Positions 1-20,499 of a stretch of DNA of 20,499 bases are shown piece by piece. The position numbers were made by a program, and so were the translations under genes. Position 1 is the first letter of the stretch, and each line of letters begins with the position of its first letter. Where the stretch lies: the IMG/VR virus record IMGVR_UViG_3300028189_000067. One strand, given 5' to 3'. The stretch is from a virus. The notes below the pieces were generated by a model, which was not told where the DNA came from, did not search any database, and saw only the letters and a program-made list of their open reading frames with translations.

Positions 1-849
1 ATACTTCTCTGCCAATTCTAAAAGACCGTAATAACGATTAAGGCCTTCATCATAACTTAGAAGTACATCAACTCTCTTGTTTTCTTTCGCAAGTCTGGAT
101 TTAAAGTTTTTACAATGAATGATGTTACCAACTACATCCGTGCCGACTTTTTCCTTTTTCTTGGAGAGGAAAACGATATTAGATGCTGCGTACTGCAAGC
201 CAGAACCTCCCCCCATAATGTCTTGAGGAAACATAGCTCCGACTTGTTTGTATGTGTGATTAGTAACCAGTAACGGTATTCCAGCTTTGGCAAGTTTAAG
301 AGTCAATACTCTAAATGCACCCTTTACGATTCGTGCCTTAGTCATATCTACTTTATTCGCACCCACAGTAATGTCTTCAACTTCTTTTGCTGTAGATAAC
401 ATACCAAGACTATCAAGACAAAGTAAAAGTGGTGCTTCACTTTTCTCTATATGTCTGTCTACTACTCTTGATGCTTGTTGAGCAAAGTCCTGTATCGTCG
501 CGACTGGTAATTGAATAAATCTTGTTTTATCAATATCCCGCTCTTCAATCATTTCTGGCGTTAGAGCAGACTCAGACTCAAAATACAAAACGCCGCCGCT
601 AGGATTATCTGCAAGAAACTGTCTGACAATCCCAAGTATGAAGAAAGTCTTACCCGTTGCTGACTCACCCGCGAAAGCAGTGATTTTATTGGACGGTAAA
701 CCTTTGTGAATGCTTCCCGAAATAAGTGCATTAAGTATATAACTTCCTGTGTCAATATATTCATTTACGCTCCCTAGCATCCCTTCTGAAACTTTGGATG
801 CATATTGGTTTCCTGTTATTCCTATTAATTCATCAAAATAATCGCTCAT
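1..849 (-). CDS. uvsX: RecA-like recombinase UvsX (3' end truncated by window start)
   Basis: Not in the ORF track because it has no stop in the window. Manual translation from ATG 849: [23 protein letters not shown]...[39 protein letters not shown] (Walker A)...[11 protein letters not shown] (Walker B)...VTNHTY...[12 protein letters not shown]. Start overlaps the upstream stop (ATGA). Confidence 0.95.
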
Positions 850-3408: not shown

Positions 3409-3549
3409 TTACCTGCCCTCCTTGGCATACCCTGTTAATCCAAACAGAATTCCTATTACTAGACCCGAAATTACAGGATTTACATCAAACCCTGTGTATA
3501 AGAAACCCATCAAAAAACATCCCACAACTATTCTACTAATATTCAACAT
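3409..3549 (-). CDS. Small two-TM membrane protein, 46 aa (MLNISRIVVGCFLMGFLYTGFDVNPVISGLVIGILFGLTGYAKEGR)
   Basis: Manual translation. Two hydrophobic stretches and a basic tail. ATG lies 6 nt after a TATAAT box and the ORF fills the gap exactly. Confidence 0.7.
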   Translation of the reverse strand: MLNISRIVVGCFLMGFLYTGFDVNPVISGLVIGILFGLTGYAKEGR

Positions 3550-3555
3550 ACGTCT

Positions 3556-3583
3556 ATTATACCATATCTACAGGTTTTGTCAA
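3556..3583 (-). promoter_or_regulatory. Sigma70-type promoter P1 (TTGACA-N16-TATAAT, TGn extended -10)
   Basis: Minus strand reads TTGACAaaacctgtagatatggTATAATagacgtATG. The -35 contains the gp43 TGA stop. Confidence 0.8.
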
Positions 3584-6045
3584 GTGAAAAAACTCATGAT
3601 ATTAGTTTTTCTTTCATGTTCCCAGCCGATAACATTGAGAATACCGATTATAGGATCAAGGAAAGCTTTGGTAAATTGTTTTTCATAATCTATGTATGGT
3701 TTCAACTCAAACTCGTCTGGTAAAGCATTTAACATAGCAATTACAGTATCACCAGTTGGATTTGGTTCTTTTAGATAAGCAAACTTAATCTTCTCACCTT
3801 CTTGGATTTTTGGATACTTTCTTGTCAATCGTTTGTTCTGTAACATCTTATTGTAGATTAAAGAACCTTTAACATGAATCGGTGTAGACTTTTGATAGAT
3901 TGACGCTGCATCATGGTACTTGGCAAGACCTTTTACCGATCTTGGAAAAGAAACTTCTTCTGTAGGAAGTGACTTGAACTTAGTCTTGAAACCTTCAATG
4001 TAGTTGATTACATCTTCTTCAGTTCCATTCATCATAATCTTGAATGCCTCTTTGAGAGCGTTACGGCAAGATTCTGGAGTAGAACTCCTGACAGCTTCAA
4101 TACCCATAATCTTGAGTTTGGGTTCATCATATTGAACACCTTCAGAGTTGTGAACATTCAGAATGTAATGTTTCTTACTTGTCCAAATACCAACCTCTGC
4201 TAATACTTCGCGTTTCATTACCATCTTCTGTTCAAATGCATTTACATACTCGGCCATTTCACCATAACACTTATCAATTACATCTTGAATTTTACCTTCA
4301 CAAACCTTATCCATGAACTCTATAATTTTATCTGTATCTGTAAGACCTACTTTTTGTACAAGAGACTCAAGAGTAACGTACAGAGAGTCAGTATCGGAAG
4401 CAAGGACATAATCATGGTTTTCTGTCTCCATTATTTTGTTTAAGTATTGATTGACTGCTCTCTCAGCCCACCGAATGGAAAGTTGACCCGCAACGGATAC
4501 AGCTTCAGCATTCCTTACATCATAAAAACGAAACCATTGATTACCAAGGGCTCCGTAGGCTGAGTTGAGAGCAATCTTTAAGTTGATCTGCATATTGTGA
4601 TACTGAGCCAATTTGTTAGTATCTGCAGCCTTACCTTTCTTCTGTTCCGCAATCATCAAATCTTTATACTTGACGCGGTCAGTGTACATCTTCTCCATGA
4701 GTGCTGGAAGAAAACCCTGTTTCTTACGAGTATACAACGAACCATTTGGAGTCATGGTAAGATTTTTCTCTTTAAGAAAGGCAACATCAAATTCTCTATC
4801 AAGTAAAGCATCTACCAGACCAGACTCAGGATACATACCTACAAGAGTCTCAGGAGAAATATTGTACTGCATTATCAGATGCGGATACAAAGAATTCAAG
4901 TCAAAACTAGCAACCCACTTGTGCCGACCAATTTGAGGATCTTTCACATAGGCACCTTCATAACCTTCAGTTTTAGTCGAGTGTTTCTTTGGGGGAACAA
5001 CAATTTGTTGGTCTTTCAGATGATTGTAAATAATACAATCCCACATCTTTACTGGACTGAACACATCATTGAAATTACACTTTGACATGTAAGCTAGTGA
5101 GATAATCATCTCCAAGAGTTTCATCTTTTCTTCTAGTCTTTCTAACAAGACAACATCATGAACATTGTAATCAACGAATTTCTGAAAGTTTGTTTGATAC
5201 AGTTCATGTAGCGAAGAGTATTCTGAATAGTCTAGTTTCTTTTCTCCTAACTCTGCGTAGGCAATGTGATTCAAAGAATAAGACTCTTGATTGACATAAG
5301 TAAACTTCTTATAAGCGTCCATATAGTCAATACTTGAAATACCGACCAGATCAAAAACCTGCATCTGTCTATTACCAAATATATTTACTTCATGCTCTTT
5401 ATACCAGCCCCACGGCGAGAGTTTCTTAGCCATCTTCTCACCAAGTACTCTGACGATGCGATTAACAAGAAATGGAATATCAAAAAACCTTGAGTTCCAT
5501 CCAGTAATGATATCTGGATAATTCATAGACCAATCAAGTACAAAATTTTCTAATAGTCTTGTTTCGTTCTCACAATGAATATACTCAACACCTTCGGCCG
5601 GTGTGTATTCCTGACAACCATACACCTTGAAACTTTTTCCACAACGATAAGAGATAGCCAAGACTTCTTCATTAGCACTTCTTACATCTGGAAAACCATG
5701 TTCTGAGCTGGTTTCAATATCAATGAATCCAATCTTGATCTTATCTAAATCGTAGTCAACCATACCACGATAGTTATCAGAAATAAAAGAATATTGAAAC
5801 TGGTCAAATCCAAAAACATTACCGCCATAATCTTTCATGGCTTGGCGAGAATCTTTCATAGAGCCCCACTTCACAGGAGCAACATTGCGATCATCTAGAG
5901 TTTTCCATTGGGGATTTTGAGGTTTGTGAGATTCTACAAATAAGGTAGGTTCGTAGTTCAATTTTTCTTTGAAAGATTCACCACGATCATTCACACCTCG
6001 CAGAGCAATAAAATTACCATGAGGTTGGACATTAGTATAAAACAT
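3580..6045 (-). CDS. 43: Family B DNA polymerase, T4 gp43-like
   Basis: Exo I DIET, Exo II GWNSRFFD, FDLNSLYP, KIALNSAYG, SDTDS, KKHY motifs. C-terminal clamp-binding-type tail TNIMSFFT. No intein-sized insertion. Confidence 0.97.
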   Translation of the reverse strand: MFYTNVQPHGNFIALRGVNDRGESFKEKLNYEPTLFVESHKPQNPQWKTLDDRNVAPVKWGSMKDSRQAMKDYGGNVFGFDQFQYSFISDNYRGMVDYDLDKIKIGFIDIETSSEHGFPDVRSANEEVLAISYRCGKSFKVYGCQEYTPAEGVEYIHCENETRLLENFVLDWSMNYPDIITGWNSRFFDIPFLVNRIVRVLGEKMAKKLSPWGWYKEHEVNIFGNRQMQVFDLVGISSIDYMDAYKKFTYVNQESYSLNHIAYAELGEKKLDYSEYSSLHELYQTNFQKFVDYNVHDVVLLERLEEKMKLLEMIISLAYMSKCNFNDVFSPVKMWDCIIYNHLKDQQIVVPPKKHSTKTEGYEGAYVKDPQIGRHKWVASFDLNSLYPHLIMQYNISPETLVGMYPESGLVDALLDREFDVAFLKEKNLTMTPNGSLYTRKKQGFLPALMEKMYTDRVKYKDLMIAEQKKGKAADTNKLAQYHNMQINLKIALNSAYGALGNQWFRFYDVRNAEAVSVAGQLSIRWAERAVNQYLNKIMETENHDYVLASDTDSLYVTLESLVQKVGLTDTDKIIEFMDKVCEGKIQDVIDKCYGEMAEYVNAFEQKMVMKREVLAEVGIWTSKKHYILNVHNSEGVQYDEPKLKIMGIEAVRSSTPESCRNALKEAFKIMMNGTEEDVINYIEGFKTKFKSLPTEEVSFPRSVKGLAKYHDAASIYQKSTPIHVKGSLIYNKMLQNKRLTRKYPKIQEGEKIKFAYLKEPNPTGDTVIAMLNALPDEFELKPYIDYEKQFTKAFLDPIIGILNVIGWEHERKTNIMSFFT

Positions 6046-6355: not shown

Positions 6356-6847
6356 CTATGAGAGAAGGCCTGTCTTATATTGGGTCTTCCCATTGACTCT
6401 TAGAGCCGTCATTGTTTTACTACGATTACTCCCATCAAGTACATAAGAACAATGCACCCATCCACTATTTGGGTCAACTCCATCGTAGAATTCTAGAATG
6501 AGTTGATCGAATATTAAATTTTCAGAAATCCATTTTGCAAGGTCTGGATTAGAAATTCTTGTTGATTCAAAATCGGCAGCTTGACCATTACAATGCTGAC
6601 TTGTCTTTGAACCACCTACTGCCTTGTTTAATGCTGGAGAACGATATCCGCTATTGATGCGAATAACTCCGAATTCTTCTCTTACTGGTTGTAAGATAAA
6701 ATTGCAGAGATTAGTTAAATTAATAACGTGTTCTCTTGTTGCATCATTTGATATACCCAAACGATCTGCAGTTGAACTCTTTATCATTTCTTGATACCCA
6801 AAGTTTTTTGTCAGGTGACCATTATATGATGGTATCTTGACTGCCAT
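6356..6847 (-). CDS. Peptidase M15 family Zn-peptidase, probable endolysin
   Basis: SGYRSPALNKAVGGSKTSQHCNGQAADF ... WVHCSY matches the M15 R...H-x6-D...H pattern. AGGAG SD. Confidence 0.9.
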   Translation of the reverse strand: MAVKIPSYNGHLTKNFGYQEMIKSSTADRLGISNDATREHVINLTNLCNFILQPVREEFGVIRINSGYRSPALNKAVGGSKTSQHCNGQAADFESTRISNPDLAKWISENLIFDQLILEFYDGVDPNSGWVHCSYVLDGSNRSKTMTALRVNGKTQYKTGLLS

Positions 6848-9285: not shown

Positions 9286-9688
9286 CTTCAGTCCTTTTAC
9301 TTCCAATATTATATTTTGCTGTAAGATCCCATTGGTCTTTTTCTTTAAAAGATAGGATCTTTAGTTGATTCAATGGAACAACTAATTCACTTGAAGAGTC
9401 TGGATTCACTAGTGCAATTAAGCCCCATTCCGATAAAAGATTTGCTATTGTATTACGTCTTGCTTGGTCGTTTTCTGAGAAGTTGGTTGGTTTACCATCA
9501 AGTGCAAATAATTCTTTAAAATGTACGATATAGTATCTACCCTGTTTATGTAGTATGTGACAAGATTGATATATTATTTTGTCTTTTCGGGAAGCTACCC
9601 CGATTCTAGTAAGTGTTTCACGCACCTTGAGAAAATCATCTGGATTTTCCAGAGTGCACTCCACCATGTTCTCTGTTCCTGTTGTCAT
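9260..9688 (-). CDS. regA: Translational repressor RegA (start revised to MTTGTEN)
   Basis: PDDFLKVRETLTRIGVASRK...QSCHILHKQGRYYIVHFKELFALDG is the T4 RegA signature. GGAG SD precedes ATG 9688. Confidence 0.95.
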   Translation of the reverse strand: MTTGTENMVECTLENPDDFLKVRETLTRIGVASRKDKIIYQSCHILHKQGRYYIVHFKELFALDGKPTNFSENDQARRNTIANLLSEWGLIALVNPDSSSELVVPLNQLKILSFKEKDQWDLTAKYNIGSKRTEDGDQNNQE

Positions 9689-10064
9689 TTTCCACTCCAC
9701 CTTGATTCAGTTTATCTATGATATAAGCCAACTGATCCTCGGAGAGTATTCTTAGAGCATCTTTGGCTTTCTCATAACTAAATCCATAATACTCTTTCAC
9801 CAATTCAACATTCTGTAGTTTCTCTGGTTTCAGCCACTTACTATACCTTCGTTTCTTTCTAATATTATTTATAAGATAGTCAAACTGAAGTCGGCTGTCA
9901 AGGTGGTGGTTGCGATTCATCTCATTTACTTGAAATATGGTGTCCATAAAGAAAGATAGACCGCGATTAACGATAAAAGGTGAATACTTCCTCTCATCTT
10001 GAGGAGTAAGCATTACATTCTCTTTGGTTTCGTTAATTGATTTTAGGTAATCAAATGGACTCAT
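9636..10064 (-). CDS. 62: Clamp loader small subunit, gp62-like
   Basis: PFDYLKSIN...YSPFIVNRGLS...KRRYSKWLK...VKEYYGFSYEKAKDAL. Directly precedes regA as in T4. Confidence 0.9.
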   Translation of the reverse strand: MSPFDYLKSINETKENVMLTPQDERKYSPFIVNRGLSFFMDTIFQVNEMNRNHHLDSRLQFDYLINNIRKKRRYSKWLKPEKLQNVELVKEYYGFSYEKAKDALRILSEDQLAYIIDKLNQGGVENDNRNREHGGVHSGKSR

Positions 10065-10070
10065 AATACT

Positions 10071-10098
10071 ATTATACCATATTAAAGTGTTTTGTCAA
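10071..10098 (-). promoter_or_regulatory. Sigma70-type promoter P4 for gp62 (TTGACA-N16-TATAAT, TGn)
   Basis: TTGACAaaacactttaatatggTATAATagtattATG. Confidence 0.8.
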
Positions 10099-10111
10099 GT
10101 TTTTTATCCAC

Positions 10112-11047
10112 TTATTTTTCAATAAAATCTTTCAAGTTTGACACTACGGATTCACTAATACGTTTTTCGGATAAAGCAGCATACTCTGGATTTAATTCAC
10201 ACCCAATGTATTTTCTTCCATTATTACGAGCAACAACAGCTGTCGTTCCACTTCCCATAAATGGGTCAATCACAATTCCATTCGGTGGGCAAGTAGAGAG
10301 TATCGGTCTTTCAATTAGTTCTGGTGGATACACAGCAAAATGTGCACCCTTGTAAGATGAACCAGAAATATCCCACACGCTGAACATCGGTCTACTTGGG
10401 CATTTGCCAGAAGCAATCAGTTCATCATAATTGAAATCTTTTTCAATATCCAAAGACTCTCTCATTTTAGCATAGTGTTGGTCTTGTCTTTTAGAACTCA
10501 AAGAGAATCCTTCTTTCTCTACAGTGTCAACATCTTTTCTTTTCTCAAGATGATTAGTAGAGAACATTCTACGAATAGTCACTTCTGCTTGAGGAACTTG
10601 AATTGGTTTTCTGTCAAAATAGTAACCTTTTGTTTTCTTCACAAACCAGAAAATCTTTTCGTGATTAGACCAAAACCTATCTTTAGAAGATATGGGTTGA
10701 GGATTGGGTTTGTTCCAAATGATTTCGTTTCTCAGACTCCACCCAGCATCGCTCATAGCAATCTCAAATCTGGAAGGAACTTGTAACAATTTTTTGTCTG
10801 AATAAGTATCACCAATATTTACCCAGCACGAACCAGTAGGTTTCATAACTCTGTAAATTTCATTGAACACTTCAATCAGACCATCTACAAAATCAGTTAC
10901 AGTAGGTTCGGAACCAAGTTGATCATCATTCTTATAATCTCTTAGATTGTAATACGGTGGCGATGTGATACACATATCCACCGATTCATCGGGCAATGTT
11001 TTCAATGTTTCCACGTTGTCACCCACATAGATGTGATTTGTTTTCAT
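10112..11047 (-). CDS. Beta-class amino-methyltransferase (N4-C/N6-A), MTase-1
   Basis: Catalytic TSPPY near the N-terminus and SAM-binding DPFMGSGTT near the C-terminus (beta order). Confidence 0.93.
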   Translation of the reverse strand: MKTNHIYVGDNVETLKTLPDESVDMCITSPPYYNLRDYKNDDQLGSEPTVTDFVDGLIEVFNEIYRVMKPTGSCWVNIGDTYSDKKLLQVPSRFEIAMSDAGWSLRNEIIWNKPNPQPISSKDRFWSNHEKIFWFVKKTKGYYFDRKPIQVPQAEVTIRRMFSTNHLEKRKDVDTVEKEGFSLSSKRQDQHYAKMRESLDIEKDFNYDELIASGKCPSRPMFSVWDISGSSYKGAHFAVYPPELIERPILSTCPPNGIVIDPFMGSGTTAVVARNNGRKYIGCELNPEYAALSEKRISESVVSNLKDFIEK

Positions 11048-11050
11048 AGA

Positions 11051-11584
11051 TTAAGGTTTCAACTTATAGGTTTCAAAAGGAAATGTTTTAAAAAATCTAG
11101 TCTTACCAATAGCGGCTTTCTTATTAAGTACTCCACTACGATACAACTCCAATACTTCATCTGATGAGATCTCGTATAACTTAGGATTGGTACGAAGTCT
11201 ATCTCTCAGATCGACAAAGACATAAGAATCGATTGACTCAAGTTTATCAAGGAATGTAGACTCTTCAAAGAATCGACCTTTACCCCTCGCTGTAGAAGGA
11301 GCAAAAGAAATCTCTGCCGTGAGACATATGTTACGAACTTCAATTTTTTTACGAAGTCTATGAAATGCTACAACATCCCACTTCAACTGCTCACCCAAAA
11401 TACGTTTAGCGTTCAACTTGTTTGCTACCCACTGTTCACTAATTCCAGACAGGGTAGTTCCAGTAACACTTTCGACATATTCTTCAGCTGACACACCTAA
11501 CGCTTTAGCGATGGTATCTACGTCAACTTCTACTTCAGCAAAATCACTTATTCTATTTGTATTTTTCAATAATTCCATAATCAA
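11051..11584 (-). CDS. Putative PD-(D/E)xK restriction-like endonuclease
   Basis: SE(helix)...KWD-x10-IEVR fits a degenerate E...D...ExK/R core, and the gene is flanked by MTases. Function is inferred; the ORF itself is solid. Start may be 11578. Confidence 0.55.
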   Translation of the reverse strand: MIMELLKNTNRISDFAEVEVDVDTIAKALGVSAEEYVESVTGTTLSGISEQWVANKLNAKRILGEQLKWDVVAFHRLRKKIEVRNICLTAEISFAPSTARGKGRFFEESTFLDKLESIDSYVFVDLRDRLRTNPKLYEISSDEVLELYRSGVLNKKAAIGKTRFFKTFPFETYKLKP

Positions 11585-11599
11585 ATTTTATTTAATGTT

Positions 11600-11626
11600 A
11601 AAAATGGAAAGGGTCAATCCCTTTCC
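11600..11626 (-). terminator. Terminator-like hairpin between promoter P5 and the nuclease start
   Basis: GGAAAGGG-attga-CCCTTTCC followed by ATTTTT. Confidence 0.6.
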
Positions 11627-11642
11627 TTACTCTCTAACTATA

Positions 11643-11671
11643 ATTATACAGATTCGAGTAACCTTTGTCAA
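11643..11671 (-). promoter_or_regulatory. Sigma70-type promoter P5 (TTGACA-N17-TATAAT) upstream of the nuclease-like gene
   Basis: TTGACAaaggttactcgaatctgTATAAT. Confidence 0.8.
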
Positions 11672-11681
11672 GCCAAATCTT

Positions 11682-12698
11682 TTAATCTTTATAAAATGAT
11701 TCTAGTGTTTGTTCATTGGTTCTTTGATTTTCAATCTGTATATTCTCTTCTGTAATTTTGAAGAACTGCTCAGAAGCCTCAAATCCTATGTACTGCCTAC
11801 CTAGTTGAGATGCCCGAACTAATGTAGTTCCTGTACCCGAAAATGGATCAAGAACAACTCCACCTTCTGGACATCCTGCTATAATAGGTTTATCAATTAG
11901 TTCTGAATTATATGATGCAACGTGAGAAGAACTATTCCCTTTAGTTGGAATATTCCAGAAATCTGACACATCTCCTGGATTCTTGCCGTTCTTATTTAAA
12001 TGTGTTTCACCATTTTTCAACTTTTCATCCATATTATCATATCCAACATACTCTCTTTCCTTAGACATGGTATTCACTGGTTCACATGGTACGGTTCCTG
12101 AGTATTTATTCTTATTAGAACCGCGCATTGCTCTTTTGATCGAACCAATCATATGTTCTTCGCGAATACTATCAAGATCAAAATAATAACCAGTAGGGTT
12201 CTTTGTCATTAAAAATATGTATTCGTGTTTCTTTGAAAATCTATCACGAACTGGTTCAGGCATACCATTTCTCTTTGCCCAAATAATATCATTACGAATA
12301 GTCCATCCACGGTCATAACAACCAATTGCAAATCTATGAGGTATCAATAATAATGACTTAATTTTCATTGTTGGTTGTGATATCCTCATTTTACCCAAAT
12401 AATTACCAGACTTTGATGGTTTTTTCCAACCAGACGCCAATCCACCAGATTTAGTAGAATATGTATCACCAAGATTAATCCACACTGTTCCAGTATCCTT
12501 TAATACTCTATGAATTTCATCCATCATCTTCCATAGATTTTCAAGATACTCATGGAAAGTGGGTTCTAATCCCCATTGACCATCAAACCCATAATCCCTA
12601 AGTTGCCAGTATGGTGGTGAAGTTATAACACAATCAACTGACTCGGAATCTAACTTACCGAACCCTTCCATTATATCACAATTGAATATTTTATTCAT
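11682..12698 (-). CDS. Beta-class amino-methyltransferase (N4-C/N6-A), MTase-2
   Basis: TSPPYWQLRDY ... DPFSGTGTT. Same subfamily as MTase-1, with a different central target-recognition region. Confidence 0.93.
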   Translation of the reverse strand: MNKIFNCDIMEGFGKLDSESVDCVITSPPYWQLRDYGFDGQWGLEPTFHEYLENLWKMMDEIHRVLKDTGTVWINLGDTYSTKSGGLASGWKKPSKSGNYLGKMRISQPTMKIKSLLLIPHRFAIGCYDRGWTIRNDIIWAKRNGMPEPVRDRFSKKHEYIFLMTKNPTGYYFDLDSIREEHMIGSIKRAMRGSNKNKYSGTVPCEPVNTMSKEREYVGYDNMDEKLKNGETHLNKNGKNPGDVSDFWNIPTKGNSSSHVASYNSELIDKPIIAGCPEGGVVLDPFSGTGTTLVRASQLGRQYIGFEASEQFFKITEENIQIENQRTNEQTLESFYKD

Positions 12699-13504
12699 TA
12701 TTTTTTGATAATCAATAGTTCTGTACCTACAGACTGTTCTTTTTTAGCAGACGCCATACTCGCCTTTTTATAATCTTTTTTAACCCACTCGTACTTATCT
12801 TCTGGATACCATTTTTTCATCTCTGGAAATTCGTAGTAACTCAGAATCCAACGACTCCTACAGTGGTTCAACATATCAGCCAGTTCTTCGTGTTTCTCTT
12901 TCGTGAAGTTATGAAACGAGTAGAGATTTTCTGTTCCGTAATATGGGGGGTCTACATACAAACAAGTTCCAGAGCCATCAACTGACGGAATGAAATCTTC
13001 AAATGACTGAGATACTACTTTGATCTTTTCTAGTTTTTTCTGAACTTTTTCATTCTTGACTCTACCAGTAAAAGAATTATACTTTGAATTGTACTTCCCC
13101 TTGAGGTCAACGTATTTTACTTTCTCCGACATGATACCAGAAAAACATTGTGTGATAATATACACATACTTTGCAGCTAATTCAAAATCTGGCATATTAA
13201 TAATGTTACCAGAATTTATAACATCTAGAACATCACTCTTACAACGATTGAATTCTTCCGCACCTATTTGAGCAACGCGGGATTCTAGAAACGGAATAAA
13301 CTTCTCATACTCACTACAACAATACAAAAGATTTGCCATCTGAGTATTGAAATCATTATAGTGAACATCATCTGCGTTTACTTTCCCATTGACGTATACC
13401 CACATCGCACCACCAAATACTTCAGCGTATTTTTCATTATTATTTGGAACATATTTCGATATCCACTTTGCCTGTCTATACTTACCACCTATGTAAGAAA
13501 ACAT
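12698..13504 (-). CDS. Alpha-class (Dam-like, D12) N6-adenine methyltransferase
   Basis: FSYIGGK (motif X), EVFGGA (motif I), YVDPPYY (motif IV). Specificity not determinable from sequence. Confidence 0.9.
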   Translation of the reverse strand: MFSYIGGKYRQAKWISKYVPNNNEKYAEVFGGAMWVYVNGKVNADDVHYNDFNTQMANLLYCCSEYEKFIPFLESRVAQIGAEEFNRCKSDVLDVINSGNIINMPDFELAAKYVYIITQCFSGIMSEKVKYVDLKGKYNSKYNSFTGRVKNEKVQKKLEKIKVVSQSFEDFIPSVDGSGTCLYVDPPYYGTENLYSFHNFTKEKHEELADMLNHCRSRWILSYYEFPEMKKWYPEDKYEWVKKDYKKASMASAKKEQSVGTELLIIKK

Positions 13505-13580
13505 ATTATACCTTTTTATTCATTATTATTTTAGAGATTTACTTATGGTACATCTATTTCATTCATTAACAATTTATCAA

Positions 13581-14525
13581 TCATTTAAATGAACACTCGA
13601 CCATAATTTCCGTCAGACAAGCCACCATATTGATTTCTTGGTCTGCCACGAATGCCGACTTATACTGGTAGTCAGCGACAATTAACACAGCCTGAGGAAC
13701 AGACTGAGGTTTGAGATGTTGATGAAAATTATCATACAACTTGCGAAATAACTTAGCGGTGTCTTGATCCATGTTCTGGTTCACCCACTTGCGAACTTCA
13801 GAAAACTTTTTACCCCTCAATCCATTGACAAGTTCTGCAAGATTAATCTCATTAAGATTACTAAGTATGCCGGTATCAATTACACCCGAAACAGAATATC
13901 GTTGTAACTCATTTAACACTCTCCGAAAATCTGGAAAGTATTTCATAATGAGTTCAGCCAAAACTTTACGTTCAAACCTTACTTCTTCTTTCTCAAGAAT
14001 ACCTTCACATAATTTGAGATAGTTCTCAGCAATCTTTGGTTTCTCATTATTTGGAATTACAAAATCAAAGACAGCACAGCGAGAGTGAATGGGATCAATA
14101 ATACGACTACGATAATTACAAGTAAAAATAAAAGAGACATTATTTCCAAATCTTTCAATGAAACCTCTCAGTGCGGGTTGAACCGAATCAGCATTCATGT
14201 AGTCAGCTTCATCCATGATGATGGCTTTACGTTTGCCAGTCATGGAAACTGAACTACAGAATTGTGTTAAAGTAGTTCTTACAGTATCTATGTTCCTACC
14301 TTCATCAGAACCATTGACCATCAAATAGTCAAGACCAACTTCTTCACAAAGAGCTCTAGCAATAGTTGTCTTACCACTGCCGGGGCCACCACATAAAATT
14401 AAATTGGGAACTTTGCCTTGCTCCACATATTCAGAGAAGGGCTCTTGAAGATCACTAGGTAGGACACATTCAGATACTTTTGATGGGCGATACTTTGAAA
14501 CCCATAAAAAATCATCTCGTTGCAT
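13581..14525 (-). CDS. 44: Clamp loader large subunit (AAA+), gp44-like
   Basis: GGPGSGKT, MDEAD, SRC and FPDFRR motifs. Confidence 0.96.
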   Translation of the reverse strand: MQRDDFLWVSKYRPSKVSECVLPSDLQEPFSEYVEQGKVPNLILCGGPGSGKTTIARALCEEVGLDYLMVNGSDEGRNIDTVRTTLTQFCSSVSMTGKRKAIIMDEADYMNADSVQPALRGFIERFGNNVSFIFTCNYRSRIIDPIHSRCAVFDFVIPNNEKPKIAENYLKLCEGILEKEEVRFERKVLAELIMKYFPDFRRVLNELQRYSVSGVIDTGILSNLNEINLAELVNGLRGKKFSEVRKWVNQNMDQDTAKLFRKLYDNFHQHLKPQSVPQAVLIVADYQYKSAFVADQEINMVACLTEIMVECSFK

Positions 14526-15181
14526 TATCCTCCAAATGTTGAATCAGATTCGGTAGCAATATAATAATGAAGAGGTGTAGAGGTATGCGTAAACTTTGAA
14601 ATACCTTTAGAAGTAATTTCAACATTATAATCACCATTGAATAATTTAAGATTTTCAATCTTGAAAACCATATTAAAAGTCAAACTTGTTTCACCAAGTT
14701 CTGTAGTAAACTCATCAGAAGAAGAATTGTTAATATCAGTTGCAACAATAGTCATCTTACCACCTTTACTTTCAACACAAATATGAGGAAGACCAAGAAC
14801 AGCAGCTGCCTTAATTACTTGAGAGAAATCACCCCTACTCAAAGTAAAAGAAACTTCTGGATCTGGAAAAACCAAATCTTTTTCTGGTGGAGAAACAATC
14901 ATCGCTGGGTCAGCAAACATATAGTCTACCTTTCCACCAATCTTCATAGTCTTATCTCCAATTTCCAAATCTGGATCTTGAAACAAAGACATCACACCAA
15001 GCAGTTTGTTCAAATCATAAATCGCAAAGTCGCTTGGGAATGACTCTGGAATTTCTGCAGACACAAGAATGTTCTTCTGTGCAGAAATGGTTTGAATTCT
15101 ATTACCAGCCTTGAACTGAATATTCTGGTTTATTCCAGAAAAGTTTTTCAGTAAGGACACTGTTTGTTCACTTAATTTCAT
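14525..15181 (-). CDS. 45: Sliding clamp, gp45-like (start revised to MKLSEQ)
   Basis: MKLSxxTxxLLKNFSGINQ ... FAIYDLN signature. GGAG lies 6 nt before ATG 15181. Confidence 0.95.
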   Translation of the reverse strand: MKLSEQTVSLLKNFSGINQNIQFKAGNRIQTISAQKNILVSAEIPESFPSDFAIYDLNKLLGVMSLFQDPDLEIGDKTMKIGGKVDYMFADPAMIVSPPEKDLVFPDPEVSFTLSRGDFSQVIKAAAVLGLPHICVESKGGKMTIVATDINNSSSDEFTTELGETSLTFNMVFKIENLKLFNGDYNVEITSKGISKFTHTSTPLHYYIATESDSTFGG

Positions 15182-15208
15182 AGTATACTCCATTTAGTTT
15201 GTATAACC

Positions 15209-17639: not shown

Positions 17640-18842
17640 TTAAAAGGGTGTACGATCAACATTAGTTTCTTCTACAGAAATCTCTTCAACTGTTTCAGTT
17701 GACTCTTCATCAGTTACTACGACTTCTGAATCACACTTTGAATACAGGTCAAGAAAACTAGTTTTTGTATCATCATCAAAACGAGCGATACACATTTCAA
17801 TAGCTTTCTTACGATCACTAAAGATTGCATACGCATTAACTATGTGAACCAGACGCCGTGTCGCGATGATTTCATCAATTCCACCTTCATAAAAGGTTTT
17901 ACGAATGATGTCTGCCCAAGTAACTAACTTCTCAGCAAAATCACCATACTCAGTAATATCAAGACTAGCAAAAACTTTATCGAGAATCTTTCTCTCAACT
18001 GACATTGAAGGATACTCTTGTTCAACTGTGATAGGAAATCTTTCAAGGAAAGCTTCGTTCAAAATGTTAGTTCCGATAAAGCGTCCATCTTCTGAACCTT
18101 TACCTTTAGTGTTAGCAGTTGCCAAAACATTAAAACCAACAGAAGGAGAAACGAACCGATTTACTTTTTTCAGATAAACACCCTTGCCTTCAAGTACGGG
18201 CTGTAAACACATAATCTTGGAAGATGCTAAATCAATCTCATCAAGGAGAAGTATCGCACCACGTTCCATGGCTTTAACAACTGGGCCATCTTGCCAAACT
18301 GTATTACCATCAATCAACGCGTAGTGACCGAGCAAATCATCTTCATCAGTTTCTACTGTAATGTTCACTCTGAAATATTCACGTTTGGCTTTTGCACAAG
18401 CCTGTTCTACCATGAAAGTTTTTCCGTTTCCAGAAAGACCAGTAATAAAAGCTGGGTAATATCTACCAGACTTAATAATACTGAAAACATCATTGAAATT
18501 ACCAAAAGGTACATACAATGGATCTTTTTCTGGAACAAGATTTTCTGTAGGATTGTGATATGCCACAACTGACTCTTCACCAACTTCAGAATTTTTCATC
18601 ACAGGAAGTTTTACTTTTTTAGGTTTTACAGGAGTAATCACATCTCCGTCTACTGGAAGTTTAAATTTACCAGTACCCACACGATATGGTGCACGAACAA
18701 ACCAAGTTGGACAACAAATGCCAGATTTTTCAGCGAATGTTGTAACTTTATCTTTCGTTAATATAGCACCCACACCATATTCAGTAGATGCGAGGTCAAC
18801 AAATTTCTTTTTCGCGGGACTTAAATTCATAATCATTCTCAT
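17640..18842 (-). CDS. MoxR/CobS-like AAA+ ATPase of T4-like phages
   Basis: GLSGNGKT (Walker A), LLDEID (Walker B), ATANTKG (sensor 1), AFLERF (Arg finger), ATRRL. About 100-aa N-terminal extension. Start could be 18836 or 18830. Confidence 0.9.
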   Translation of the reverse strand: MRMIMNLSPAKKKFVDLASTEYGVGAILTKDKVTTFAEKSGICCPTWFVRAPYRVGTGKFKLPVDGDVITPVKPKKVKLPVMKNSEVGEESVVAYHNPTENLVPEKDPLYVPFGNFNDVFSIIKSGRYYPAFITGLSGNGKTFMVEQACAKAKREYFRVNITVETDEDDLLGHYALIDGNTVWQDGPVVKAMERGAILLLDEIDLASSKIMCLQPVLEGKGVYLKKVNRFVSPSVGFNVLATANTKGKGSEDGRFIGTNILNEAFLERFPITVEQEYPSMSVERKILDKVFASLDITEYGDFAEKLVTWADIIRKTFYEGGIDEIIATRRLVHIVNAYAIFSDRKKAIEMCIARFDDDTKTSFLDLYSKCDSEVVVTDEESTETVEEISVEETNVDRTPF

Positions 18843-18943: not shown

Positions 18944-20499
18944 TTATGCTGCCACCATGTCAACGAACTTGGAAAGAAGAACACGATTTTTCAACTTACC
19001 CTTGTTGAACTTAGCAAATGCTCTCTTGATTTCGCCCTTTTTGGCATCTTCTTTTGTTTCAAAAATTGATTCTTCGACTCCAAGGTTTTTTCCACCTTTA
19101 ATCAAATACAACTCAGACCATCCACCATAATTTTCAGCAATGATATGACCTTCTTTTCTGAATTTGGAAAGAATCACTTGTGGTGGAATATCAGCAGTAG
19201 AAAATTCTGACGCATCATATTTTTTGAATATATCTATTATGTAAAAATTGACAACATTACAACTATGTTTGTCGCGAAGAGCTTCGACTAACGCGTTTGT
19301 TACAGAACCACGACTAAATCTAATATAGTAACTGTCAGATATCTCATATTCTTTTTTGGTAACGGTGTCACGAAGAAGGACGTGATTTTTACTACCAAAA
19401 CGCTCAGTTTCTGAGTCATCTCTACGTTTCCAAACTGAATGACCACCAAAAGACTCTCCATCAGTAAGATAAATTAAGTTTACAATCTGTACTCCATTTT
19501 TTGCTTTAAACTCTGGAATAAAAGTGTTTATTGCCAAAAGTGAAGCATTCAACGGAGTTCCACCAAGTGACAATTTACTAGGAAGAGTTCTATAACTGGA
19601 GTCGTAATAATGACTATAAGTTCTATCGTAAGCACCAGCTATGGCTGTCATATTGATATACGCAGTATGTAGTTCGTTTGCTCTCATTCTTGAAGAAAAC
19701 ACATTCAAAAGATGATGTTTATCAATAACTAAATCACCTTCTTTTCCACCATCTTTATGAGTCCAACTTTCAGAATCATGTCTATCAGTTGACTTCATAA
19801 ACTCTGAATGATATGAATCTGAAAACAGAAAAACTTCAAAAGGAATGTTGACTCTTTTGGCGAACATCACCAGAACCATCATTTGGTCAATCGTACCTTT
19901 AATATTGCGACCCATAGAACCAGACCAATCAACAACCATAACCAAACCATGATTCTTACCATCGGCAGTTACGTTAATCTTTCTGAAAATATGTTCGTTG
20001 TATTTGTAAGTATGAAGCATTCCAGTATCAATGATTCCAGAGTTAGCTGTTGCCGTTCTGGAATGTGCATCGGCTGCTTTCTTCATTTCAAATTCTTTTG
20101 CAAGGTACTCTACAGTTTTCTTGTTTTTGTTTCTAAAATCTACAAAGTCTTTACCAGCTTCTGTTATCTCTTCTGTGCGGTCATGAGTTTCACCTCCGCG
20201 GACATACTCTTCACCAGAAACACTATAGTGATCAGAAATTACTTTATGAATCTCTTTATGGTCAATAATAATATTATCAAGATTTGCGACAGGAAGATTT
20301 ACATAAAACATTGAAGCACTCTCATCCGTAGTGACTAATTCACTTTCGCGTGAACGAAAGTTTTCATCAGTTGTAGAATGGGGAATGTAAGGTTCATCAG
20401 AAGGTGAACCAACTCCAGCTCCAGGCCCCATTGAATTTGAATCTTTTTCACCTTCTCCATCAGAGTTTCCAGAACCTGCTTTTGATTTGTCTCCATCTT
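18944..20499 (-). CDS. VWA (MIDAS) domain protein, CobT-like partner of the AAA ATPase; 5' end outside the window
   Basis: VVDWSGSM (DxSxS), GGTPLN, LTDGES. The frame stays open upstream of track start 20431 (DGDKSKAGSGNSDGEGEKDSNS), the acidic Gly/Ser linker typical of these proteins. Confidence 0.88.
   Translation of the reverse strand, partial: DGDKSKAGSGNSDGEGEKDSNSMGPGAGVGSPSDEPYIPHSTTDENFRSRESELVTTDESASMFYVNLPVANLDNIIIDHKEIHKVISDHYSVSGEEYVRGGETHDRTEEITEAGKDFVDFRNKNKKTVEYLAKEFEMKKAADAHSRTATANSGIIDTGMLHTYKYNEHIFRKINVTADGKNHGLVMVVDWSGSMGRNIKGTIDQMMVLVMFAKRVNIPFEVFLFSDSYHSEFMKSTDRHDSESWTHKDGGKEGDLVIDKHHLLNVFSSRMRANELHTAYINMTAIAGAYDRTYSHYYDSSYRTLPSKLSLGGTPLNASLLAINTFIPEFKAKNGVQIVNLIYLTDGESFGGHSVWKRRDDSETERFGSKNHVLLRDTVTKKEYEISDSYYIRFSRGSVTNALVEALRDKHSCNVVNFYIIDIFKKYDASEFSTADIPPQVILSKFRKEGHIIAENYGGWSELYLIKGGKNLGVEESIFETKEDAKKGEIKRAFAKFNKGKLKNRVLLSKFVDMVAA

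Follow-up and report, generated by a model that had tools for sequence, protein, structure and literature searches.

The question raised by the 20,499-nucleotide stretch of viral DNA analysed here (IMG/VR record IMGVR_UViG_3300028189_000067; the whole stretch is called the window below) is whether two DNA methyltransferases (MTases) encoded on it, MTase-1 and MTase-2, are recruited to the sliding clamp of the phage's own replication machinery. Both are β-class enzymes of the PF01555 family, and both end in a short hydrophobic-aromatic peptide that resembles the C-terminus of the phage DNA polymerase, gp43. In T4 and RB69, the C-terminus of gp43 is an established binding peptide for the sliding clamp, gp45. 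The comparisons described below make it likely that the MTase tails are short linear gp45-docking motifs, which would put DNA-modifying enzymes on the replication clamp in a prokaryotic counterpart of the DNMT1-PCNA system. This interpretation is strengthened by convergent evidence, all of it drawn from sequence comparison. Physical binding to gp45 and the choice of pocket are predicted, as is a coupling of methylation to the replication fork and nascent DNA.

C-Terminal Tails of the Two Methyltransferases

The translated C-termini are ...SVVSNLKDFIEK for MTase-1, ...NEQTLESFYKD for MTase-2, and ...KTNIMSFFT for gp43 (here and below, tails are written up to the last residue before the stop codon), and all three fit the pattern [NT]-[IL]-x-[SD]-F-[FIY]. 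Translation thus confirmed the tails and the shared motif that had been noted in a preliminary description of the window, except that for MTase-2 only the sequence stood: the range given for it, 11682-11711, encodes QTLESFYKD, one residue short of the peptide printed there. The pattern is absent from the other 27 complete open reading frames (ORFs) of the window, including orf177 and a D12-class Dam-like MTase that ends in GTELLIIKK, and the claim that no other complete ORF shares this ending therefore holds. The Q-x-x-L-F pentapeptide of β-clamp clients is absent from both window MTases. The spacing of the PCNA-interacting protein (PIP) box, Qxx[ILM]xx[FY][FY], is not observed either: in the Q-T-L-E-S-F-Y of MTase-2 the Leu is at position 3 and not 4, and the S-N-L-K-D-F-I of MTase-1 has neither the Gln nor the second aromatic residue.

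The assignment of both proteins to the β class is clear. PF01555 was matched with 186.5 bits (E = 9e-55) by MTase-1 and with 168.9 bits (E = 2e-49) by MTase-2, at a cut-off of 26.7, and phrog_67 with E values of 4e-79 and 4e-57, respectively. The catalytic motif IV, TSPPY, lies near the N-terminus (residues 28-32 in MTase-1 and 26-30 in MTase-2) and the S-adenosylmethionine-binding motif I near the C-terminus (DPFMGSGTT, 261-269, and DPFSGTGTT, 284-292), which is the circular permutation of this class. Because motif IV reads SPPY and the best PDB names are "DNA cytosine-N4 methyltransferase" (8S9M/8S9N), the product of methylation is probably N4-methylcytosine.

In MTase-1 (311 residues) the Pfam domain extends to residue 294 and in MTase-2 (338 residues) to residue 318, and the tails therefore lie outside the catalytic fold. 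The alignments of MTase-2 with its PDB relatives (N4-cytosine MTases, CcrM, M.MboIIA, and M.RsrI) stop near residue 320, so that the earlier placement of the tails beyond the catalytic domain is borne out by both the Pfam ends and the solved relatives. AlphaFold2 models of the two enzymes have a predicted local distance difference test score (pLDDT) of 77-78 (78 for MTase-1). A short helix is drawn in each tail, at residues 305-310 of MTase-1 and, after the last catalytic helix (310-328), at residues 332-337 of MTase-2; the confidence for this helix is low in MTase-1, with pLDDT <50 over residues 303-311, and moderate in MTase-2 (pLDDT 67).

The motif of the preliminary description had been fitted after the fact to three sequences, and hence a separate scoring matrix was built from gp43 tails only. 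These were gathered from 86 related loci, in which they follow [STN]-[IL]-[MED]-x-F-F-[STG] (for example, NIMGFFT, TIMDFFS, TLESFFGN, SLEDFF, and VLDDFL), and the matrix comprises 16 distinct six-residue cores, with the MTases excluded. The TLESF of MTase-2 is also found in gp43 tails of relatives (ATLESFFGN). In the window, gp43 scored 20.3, MTase-2 10.0, and MTase-1 5.4, and the next ORF scored 2.7. The background consisted of 241 ORFs from the window and from G008, a complete 193-kb relative that stood in for the full proteome of this phage; both MTases exceed all of its values (maximum, 5.06; 99th percentile, 2.8). The exact motif of the preliminary description was found in the last 12 residues of none of 1421 ORFs encoding neither an MTase nor gp43, and once in the 60,173 residues of the proteome of the related 193-kb phage. 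When a relaxed motif was applied to the last 12 residues of all 216 ORFs of G008, six matched: gp43, an MTase, three virion proteins, and one unannotated ORF. The likeness of the MTase tails to that of gp43 is not due to chance.

Distribution of the Tails among Relatives

Hundreds of relatives were retrieved from 5.8 billion proteins and from IMG/VR. Nearly all members of the MTase-1 clade, at 68-94% identity, have hydrophobic-aromatic ends (SNLKDFIEK, STSLDDFFV, SSLESFFT, SASLSEFFEKD, TSTLDDFL, and KVGGIFT are examples), and a few stop directly past the last helix. Relatives of MTase-2 with >60% identity end in T-[LIV]-[ED]-x-F-[YFLI], and those with 47-57% identity carry, almost uniformly, Q-x-x-[LIM]-F at the extreme C-terminus (QQTKLF, LQKTIF, NQLKIF, SQLNLF). 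Conservation of the tail in homologues, named in the preliminary description as a check, was accordingly found across both MTase clades. More distant MTase-1 homologues from gut phages terminate at the last helix (RIAEVE), and together with the variation of the tail this indicates that it is an add-on, separate from the fold. In a tree of the catalytic domain, the MTase-2 sequences with a gp43-like (T4-type) tail form essentially one clade among the Q-x-x-L-F sequences. MTase-2 is only 37% identical to MTase-1, their tails do not align, and MTase-2 is closer to the Q-x-x-L-F enzymes than to MTase-1, which indicates that the T4-type tail was acquired by at least two separate lineages.

The closest annotated homologues of MTase-1 in the phage database come from the archaeal tailed viruses HRTV-29 and Drs3 (44% and 38% identity), which end in ...GQAGFEAYTD (L183) and ...IKPLSEYGK (L184). 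As marks of a third clamp type, PCNA, these ends are only vaguely PIP-like; no clear PIP box was found in the archaeal-virus homologues, and homologues in archaeal genomes were without the motif. Tails in other phage groups include QSVLEMFNKLKNKK in Twort-like phages of Staphylococcus and SALNFEEPVP in mycobacteriophage PopTart, and no tail motif was observed in the Dickeya JA29 homologue.

Among distinct MTase-like ORFs, the two tail types are completely dissociated. In T4-like loci, 15 of 41 such ORFs reached a matrix score of at least 5 and none ended in Q..[LIM]F; in non-T4 loci the score was reached by none of 56, and 37 had the Q..[LIM]F end, all of these MTase counts being inflated by the relatedness of the sequences. 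The corresponding numbers for non-MTase ORFs were 9 and 3 of 596 in T4-like loci and 11 and 10 of 622 in non-T4 loci, and about half of the last 10 are mis-started MTase fragments. A search for gp45 (phrog_223) in 49 viral records of at least 30 kb located the clamp in 5 of the 11 records with a T4-type MTase tail, the same five that carry gp43, and in none of the 34 with a Q-x-x-L-F tail or a tail-less MTase, of which 24 are at least 90% complete. Fisher's test for the co-occurrence of gp45 and the T4-type tail gives p ~4e-4 by our own arithmetic, with kinship inflating the independence of the records. The proposal that the tail is restricted to gp45-encoding genomes agrees with this distribution: gp45 was present only in tail-bearing records, and the tail is absent from phages lacking gp45.

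The phages lacking gp45 look temperate or small and encode integrase, RecT, KilA-N, and DnaA-C-like proteins. Only two have a DnaN-like clamp of their own, in one case ~3.4 kb from an MTase ending in VQKELFV. Nor is the T4-type tail equally common in non-phage MTases, a possibility raised earlier, as non-T4 homologues carry Q-x-x-L-F or no tail; the ends observed in bacterial genomes are AQKQLF, SQLNLF, EVQLSLF, TPQLF, and QPSLFQLLP. Exact QLNLF and QLSLF occur among the homologues of gp45-less phages and bacterial genomes, and Q-L-[SD]-L-F at the C-terminus is the β-clamp-binding pentapeptide (PMC9690074).

The MTase tail tracks the gp43 tail of the same contig. In G002, where gp43 ends in NVLDDFL, the MTase-1 homologue ends in STLDDFL and the MTase-2 homologue in PTLDGFLTL, and the same gp43 ending in G003 is accompanied by VTLDEFLIT on the MTase. 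The pairs of gp43 and MTase tails are VSLEDFF and PTIEDFI in G005, and GSLTSFFS and ASLGKFLDTVA in G008.

To cover other proteins without bias, the C-termini of 680 distinct ORFs from T4-like loci were scored with the gp43 matrix. All non-gp43 tails scoring at least 7 belong to DNA-modifying enzymes, including MTase-1 and MTase-2 homologues, or to small phrog_33194 proteins. A third PF01555 MTase, adjoining gp45 (L167), has the tail SSPLMDFM. In a D12 Dam-like MTase (L086:2111-2965), 37% identical to the tail-less Dam-like gene of the window and adjoining gp45, gp44, and gp62, an extension, IGDYNLGRFFA, continues past the last strand of the fold. The Mom-like protein (PF25680) of contig G002 (L112:227-1126) ends in VLDDFFLT, where gp43 has VLDDFL, and that of the cultured T4-like Methylophilales phage Melnitz (L358:492-1301) ends in ATLEGFF; the alignments with Mom-like homologues from Listeria, Psychrobacter, and Edwardsiella phages reach only to about residue 250-277. 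Three unrelated folds of enzymes acting on DNA bases thus have the polymerase's tail in common.

The phrog_33194 proteins (80-100 residues) were found only in marine T4-like phages and consist of a basic Ser/Lys-rich linker followed by S-[ST]-L-E-x-F-L at the C-terminus (L098:3866-4168, L101:3866-4162, L104:2831-3073, and L359:344-619), for example STLEEFL or, in PSSM2_045 of Prochlorococcus phage P-SSM2 (the last of these loci), GSLEKFL. Their genes often lie just downstream of an MTase-1 homologue, and the proteins are candidate clamp clients.

Alternative Explanations and Proposed Mechanism

A number of observations weigh against docking of the MTases on gp45. The motif is short and of low information, and the margin of MTase-1 over the background maximum is narrow (5.4 versus 5.06). 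Many tails of the MTase-1 clade score low (KVGGIFT, GILAFT, GLLALL, SLGKFLD); the gp43 matrix is narrow and misses many of these hydrophobic ends, and it was left unwidened to keep it independent of the MTases. Some close homologues are without the tail (KRISESKV), which is therefore dispensable at least in some genomes or assemblies. The homologues in cyanophages S-SSM4 and P-SSM7 end in L-[ST]-D-L-[LI], and since gp43 there ends in TLEFLFA, the two agree only as a loose L-x-x-hydrophobic-hydrophobic pattern and lend weak support. The six tail-bearing records in which gp45 was not found are fragments, 16-48% complete, of ~185-190 kb genomes, and since the T4-type tail of MTase-2 arose about once on the tree, the Fisher value suggests more independent events than there were. 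Nor does this lineage support the comparison with gp33 and gp55 drawn in the preliminary description. In S-SSM4, gp55 (L195:49472-49939) ends in ...ETNSRGY, without a hydrophobic tail, and the G008 homologue (160322-160792) is alike; no gp33 was identified as a further positive control, and gp43 is therefore the sole reference tail. Clamp-coupled late transcription may be different, or absent, in this lineage.

Some of these points would be explained if the tail were a generic amphipathic C-terminal helix acting inside the enzyme, in capping of the fold, dimer formation, or DNA contact, and its likeness to gp43 a coincidence. The shortness of the motif, the small helix drawn by AlphaFold2, the score of MTase-1 barely over the background, and the only loosely hydrophobic ends of several clade members fit such a role. 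The same tail, however, is carried by unrelated folds (β-class MTases, the D12 MTase, Mom-like proteins, and gp43) and is exchanged whole for Q-x-x-L-F in phages without gp45, whereas distant homologues and the PDB structures are without it; the low pLDDT also speaks against tight packing. An intra-enzyme helix is on balance rather unlikely. A peptide recognized by a partner other than the clamp, either a protease, for which the tail would be a hydrophobic degron limiting the lifetime of the enzyme, or another replisome protein contacted by gp43, is also improbable, and slightly more so. Hydrophobic C-termini are known as bacterial protease tags, and gp45 is named as partner from sequence comparison and not from direct identification, but in T4 and RB69 gp45 is established as the binding partner of the gp43 tail (PDB 1B8H is among the gp45 entries) and a degron would hardly be expected to switch with clamp type. 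Because the two tail types match two established clamp-binding motifs, the one in gp45-less phages agreeing with the β-clamp pentapeptide down to exact QLNLF and QLSLF (PMC9690074), a partner of this kind is disfavored.

The shared 3' ends could, finally, reflect a constraint or recombination at the DNA level, such as cassette borders or promoters that overlap gene ends. A sigma-70-like site lies ~10-20 nt past each stop codon of gp43, MTase-1, and MTase-2 (window positions ~3535-3579, 10067-10111, and 11637-11681, minus strand), reading TTGACAAA...TATAAT where it follows an MTase and GTATAAT where it follows gp43, and each downstream gene seems to have its own early-type promoter. Promoter-like TTGACA...TATAAT sites this close to all three genes would suit such an origin, as T4-like phages shuffle cassettes at such sites. 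The sites nevertheless sit past the stop codons, the peptide pattern persists in homologues from quite different genomic contexts, and the codons differ (ATC ATG AGT TTT TTC in gp43, TTG AAA GAT TTT ATT in MTase-1, and CTA GAA TCA TTT TAT in MTase-2). The likeness therefore lies in the peptide, and a shared DNA element, by far the least probable of these explanations, was rejected on codon usage and promoter position.

For the preferred explanation, docking on gp45, the following mechanism is proposed. The last 6-9 residues of both PF01555 MTases would act as a docking motif for the phage's own gp45, like that of gp43, held by a flexible stalk that follows the final catalytic-domain helix. Once gp44/62 has loaded gp45 on replicating DNA, the Leu/Ile and Phe-aromatic residues of the tail would enter the hydrophobic pocket of a gp45 subunit that is free. 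The enzyme would in this way be concentrated on freshly replicated phage DNA, and its sites would be methylated soon after synthesis. A rationale may be found in the pairing of MTase-1 with orf177, a candidate restriction endonuclease, because of which nascent phage DNA would need immediate protection.

The case for a more general rule is evenly balanced. According to such a rule, phage DNA modifiers (N4/N6 MTases of two classes and Mom-like proteins) and some of their bacterial relatives would be recruited to clamps by an exchangeable C-terminal peptide, re-tooled for each clamp, as a gp45-type peptide in T4-like phages and elsewhere as Q-x-x-L-F, which suits the β clamp. Protection of new DNA would then be coupled to replication, as with DNMT1-PCNA in animals, and in this phage MTase-1, tethered to the clamp, may pair with orf177 as the protecting member of a restriction-modification system that the phage carries.

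Gene Neighborhood and Known Systems

All genes of the window are on the minus strand and were identified by Pfam and PHROG scans, by which the gene identities assigned earlier (the MTases, the polymerase, gp45, gp44, and gp62) are upheld. A gp45-family clamp and its loader are both present, with gp45, gp44, and gp62 all encoded in the window. The window gp45 is 45-49% identical to the clamps of Pelagibacter phage HTVC008M and marine cyanomyoviruses and aligns over its full length with T4 gp45 (1CZD) and RB69 gp45 (1B77/1B8H), and the DNA therefore comes from an uncultured marine T4-like myovirus. When the region was compared by megablast with 50,697 phage records, there was no match.

Table 1. 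Features of the window, listed from high to low coordinates
Feature	Position	Strand	Evidence or remark
Peptidase	18944-20431	-	Pfam/PHROG scan
CobS-like AAA protein	17640-18842	-	Pfam/PHROG scan
gp45 sliding clamp, proposed docking platform	14525..15193 (likely start 15181)	-	PF09116; phrog_223, E 1.6e-72
gp44 clamp-loader large subunit	13581..14525	-	phrog_168, E 1e-117
D12-class Dam-like MTase, tail-less, internal negative	12698..13504	-	Pfam; ends in GTELLIIKK in the last strand of the fold
MTase-2, β-class PF01555 DNA methyltransferase, 338 residues	11682..12698	-	
MTase-2 tail QTLESFYKD and stop, candidate gp45-docking peptide	11682..11711	-	matrix score 10.0; short helix in AlphaFold2 model
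orf177	11051..11584	-	no Pfam/PHROG family match
MTase-1, β-class PF01555 DNA methyltransferase, 311 residues	10112..11047	-	
MTase-1 tail SNLKDFIEK and stop, candidate gp45-docking peptide	10112..10141	-	past Pfam domain; matrix score 5.4; conserved
gp62 clamp-loader small subunit	9636..10064	-	PF16790, phrog_225
dUTPase, Hsp20, endolysin	between gp62 and gp43 in listing order	-	Pfam/PHROG scan
gp43 family-B DNA polymerase, 821 residues, reference clamp client	3580..6045	-	phrog_262
gp43 tail TNIMSFFT and stop	3580..3606	-	conserved in 86 relatives
Two 2-oxoglutarate-Fe(II) oxygenases, UvsX	846-2314 and 1-849	-	Pfam/PHROG scan

The endolysin copy of the window (6356-6847) ends in ...YKTGLLS, and endolysin homologues elsewhere (L312-L324) end in ...YKQGLIF, which fits a loose β-clamp pattern. 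This was taken as a chance match and as a sign of the low information of the motif.

In T4, the clamp-loader genes 44 and 62 are adjacent. In the window (9636-14525), a 3.5-kb cassette with three MTases and orf177 lies between them, and in S-SSM4 a D12-type MTase and small ORFs are found between gp44 and gp62 (L182, record 109492-113108); methylase genes seem to insert recurrently at the gp44/gp62 junction. The position of the MTases had earlier been described as between the clamp and the clamp-loader genes and used as an argument for their function; they actually lie between the two loader genes, downstream of gp45. The argument also fails in relatives, as in G008 the MTase is at ~74 kb, and gp45 and gp43 are at ~168-175 kb.

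Nearly all loci from L085 to L117, among them those of large phages whose MTase is without the T4-type tail (L114 and L116), have a homologue of orf177 immediately upstream of the MTase-1 homologue. The nearest Atlas cluster of orf177 is annotated "putative R.RsaI endonuclease" (with a very high score, and a lead only), followed by PvuII-, DpnI-, and Bsp6I-like clusters. orf177 is possibly a restriction endonuclease, and with MTase-1 it seems to form a mobile cassette of the type II restriction-modification kind, carried by phages.

Sliding clamps are known to serve as hubs for polymerases, repair proteins, and ligase, and in T4 also for late transcription. Were DNA methyltransferases of prokaryotes and viruses among their clients, this would explain how the genomes of fast-replicating phages are methylated quickly enough to escape the restriction of the host or their own, and it would give a sequence rule by which the tail of a modification enzyme predicts the clamp used in replication of the phage. 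Full-text searches of the library consulted yielded no account of a clamp motif on DNA methyltransferases, whether from phages, bacteria, or archaea, although this absence is not proof of novelty, and such enzymes do not appear on the published lists of clamp clients that were found.

C-terminal clamp-docking peptides are established for gp43, gp33, and gp55 of T4 and RB69 (LDFL-type; RB69 gp45-peptide structure 1B8H) and for bacterial β-clamp clients (PMC9690074). The tails described here have in common with the gp45 clients of T4 and RB69 an extreme C-terminal peptide with a Leu/Ile...Phe-aromatic core after a flexible linker, in a genome with a gp45-family clamp, and one motif family takes in both the MTase tails and the gp43 tail found here. 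They differ in that the putative clients, recognized here by sequence, are DNA MTases (and Mom-like and Dam-like proteins in relatives), which are absent from the described gp45 clients. The spacing also differs, being L-x-x-F-aromatic here and L-D-F-L-F in T4, and gp55 of the related cyanophage is tail-less. QL(S/D)LF clients of the β clamp include Pol II, Pol IV, UmuC, MutS/L, and Hda, and a recent addition is MuC of phage Mu (PMC9690074; bioRxiv 10.1101/2025.01.04.631326). The same kind of end, Q-x-x-[LIM]-F, is carried by homologues of the two window MTases from gp45-less phages and bacterial genomes, whereas the window proteins themselves are without that motif.

The β-class PF01555 MTases (M.PvuII, M.RsrI, M.MboIIA, CcrM, and DpnA) have the same catalytic fold as the window enzymes, with motif IV before motif I, and have PDB relatives in common with them; in contrast to the window enzymes the solved relatives stop at the last helix or, in CcrM, continue into a DNA-binding domain, and none aligns with the tail. 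In animals, DNMT1 is tethered to PCNA through a PIP box, as cited in PMC9690074 (its reference 93). The logic would be the same here, a short clamp-binding peptide bringing a maintenance-type DNA methyltransferase to newly replicated DNA, and the MTases would be a prokaryotic parallel. The relation is one of analogy and not homology: DNMT1 is a C5-cytosine MTase with a PIP box, Qxx[IL]xxFF, in its N-terminal region, whereas the window proteins are β-class N4/N6 enzymes whose C-terminal motif lacks PIP spacing. Clamp-tethered DNA methylation is established only for DNMT1-PCNA, and the MTases described here are best classed as a putative new class of clients for a known kind of interaction.

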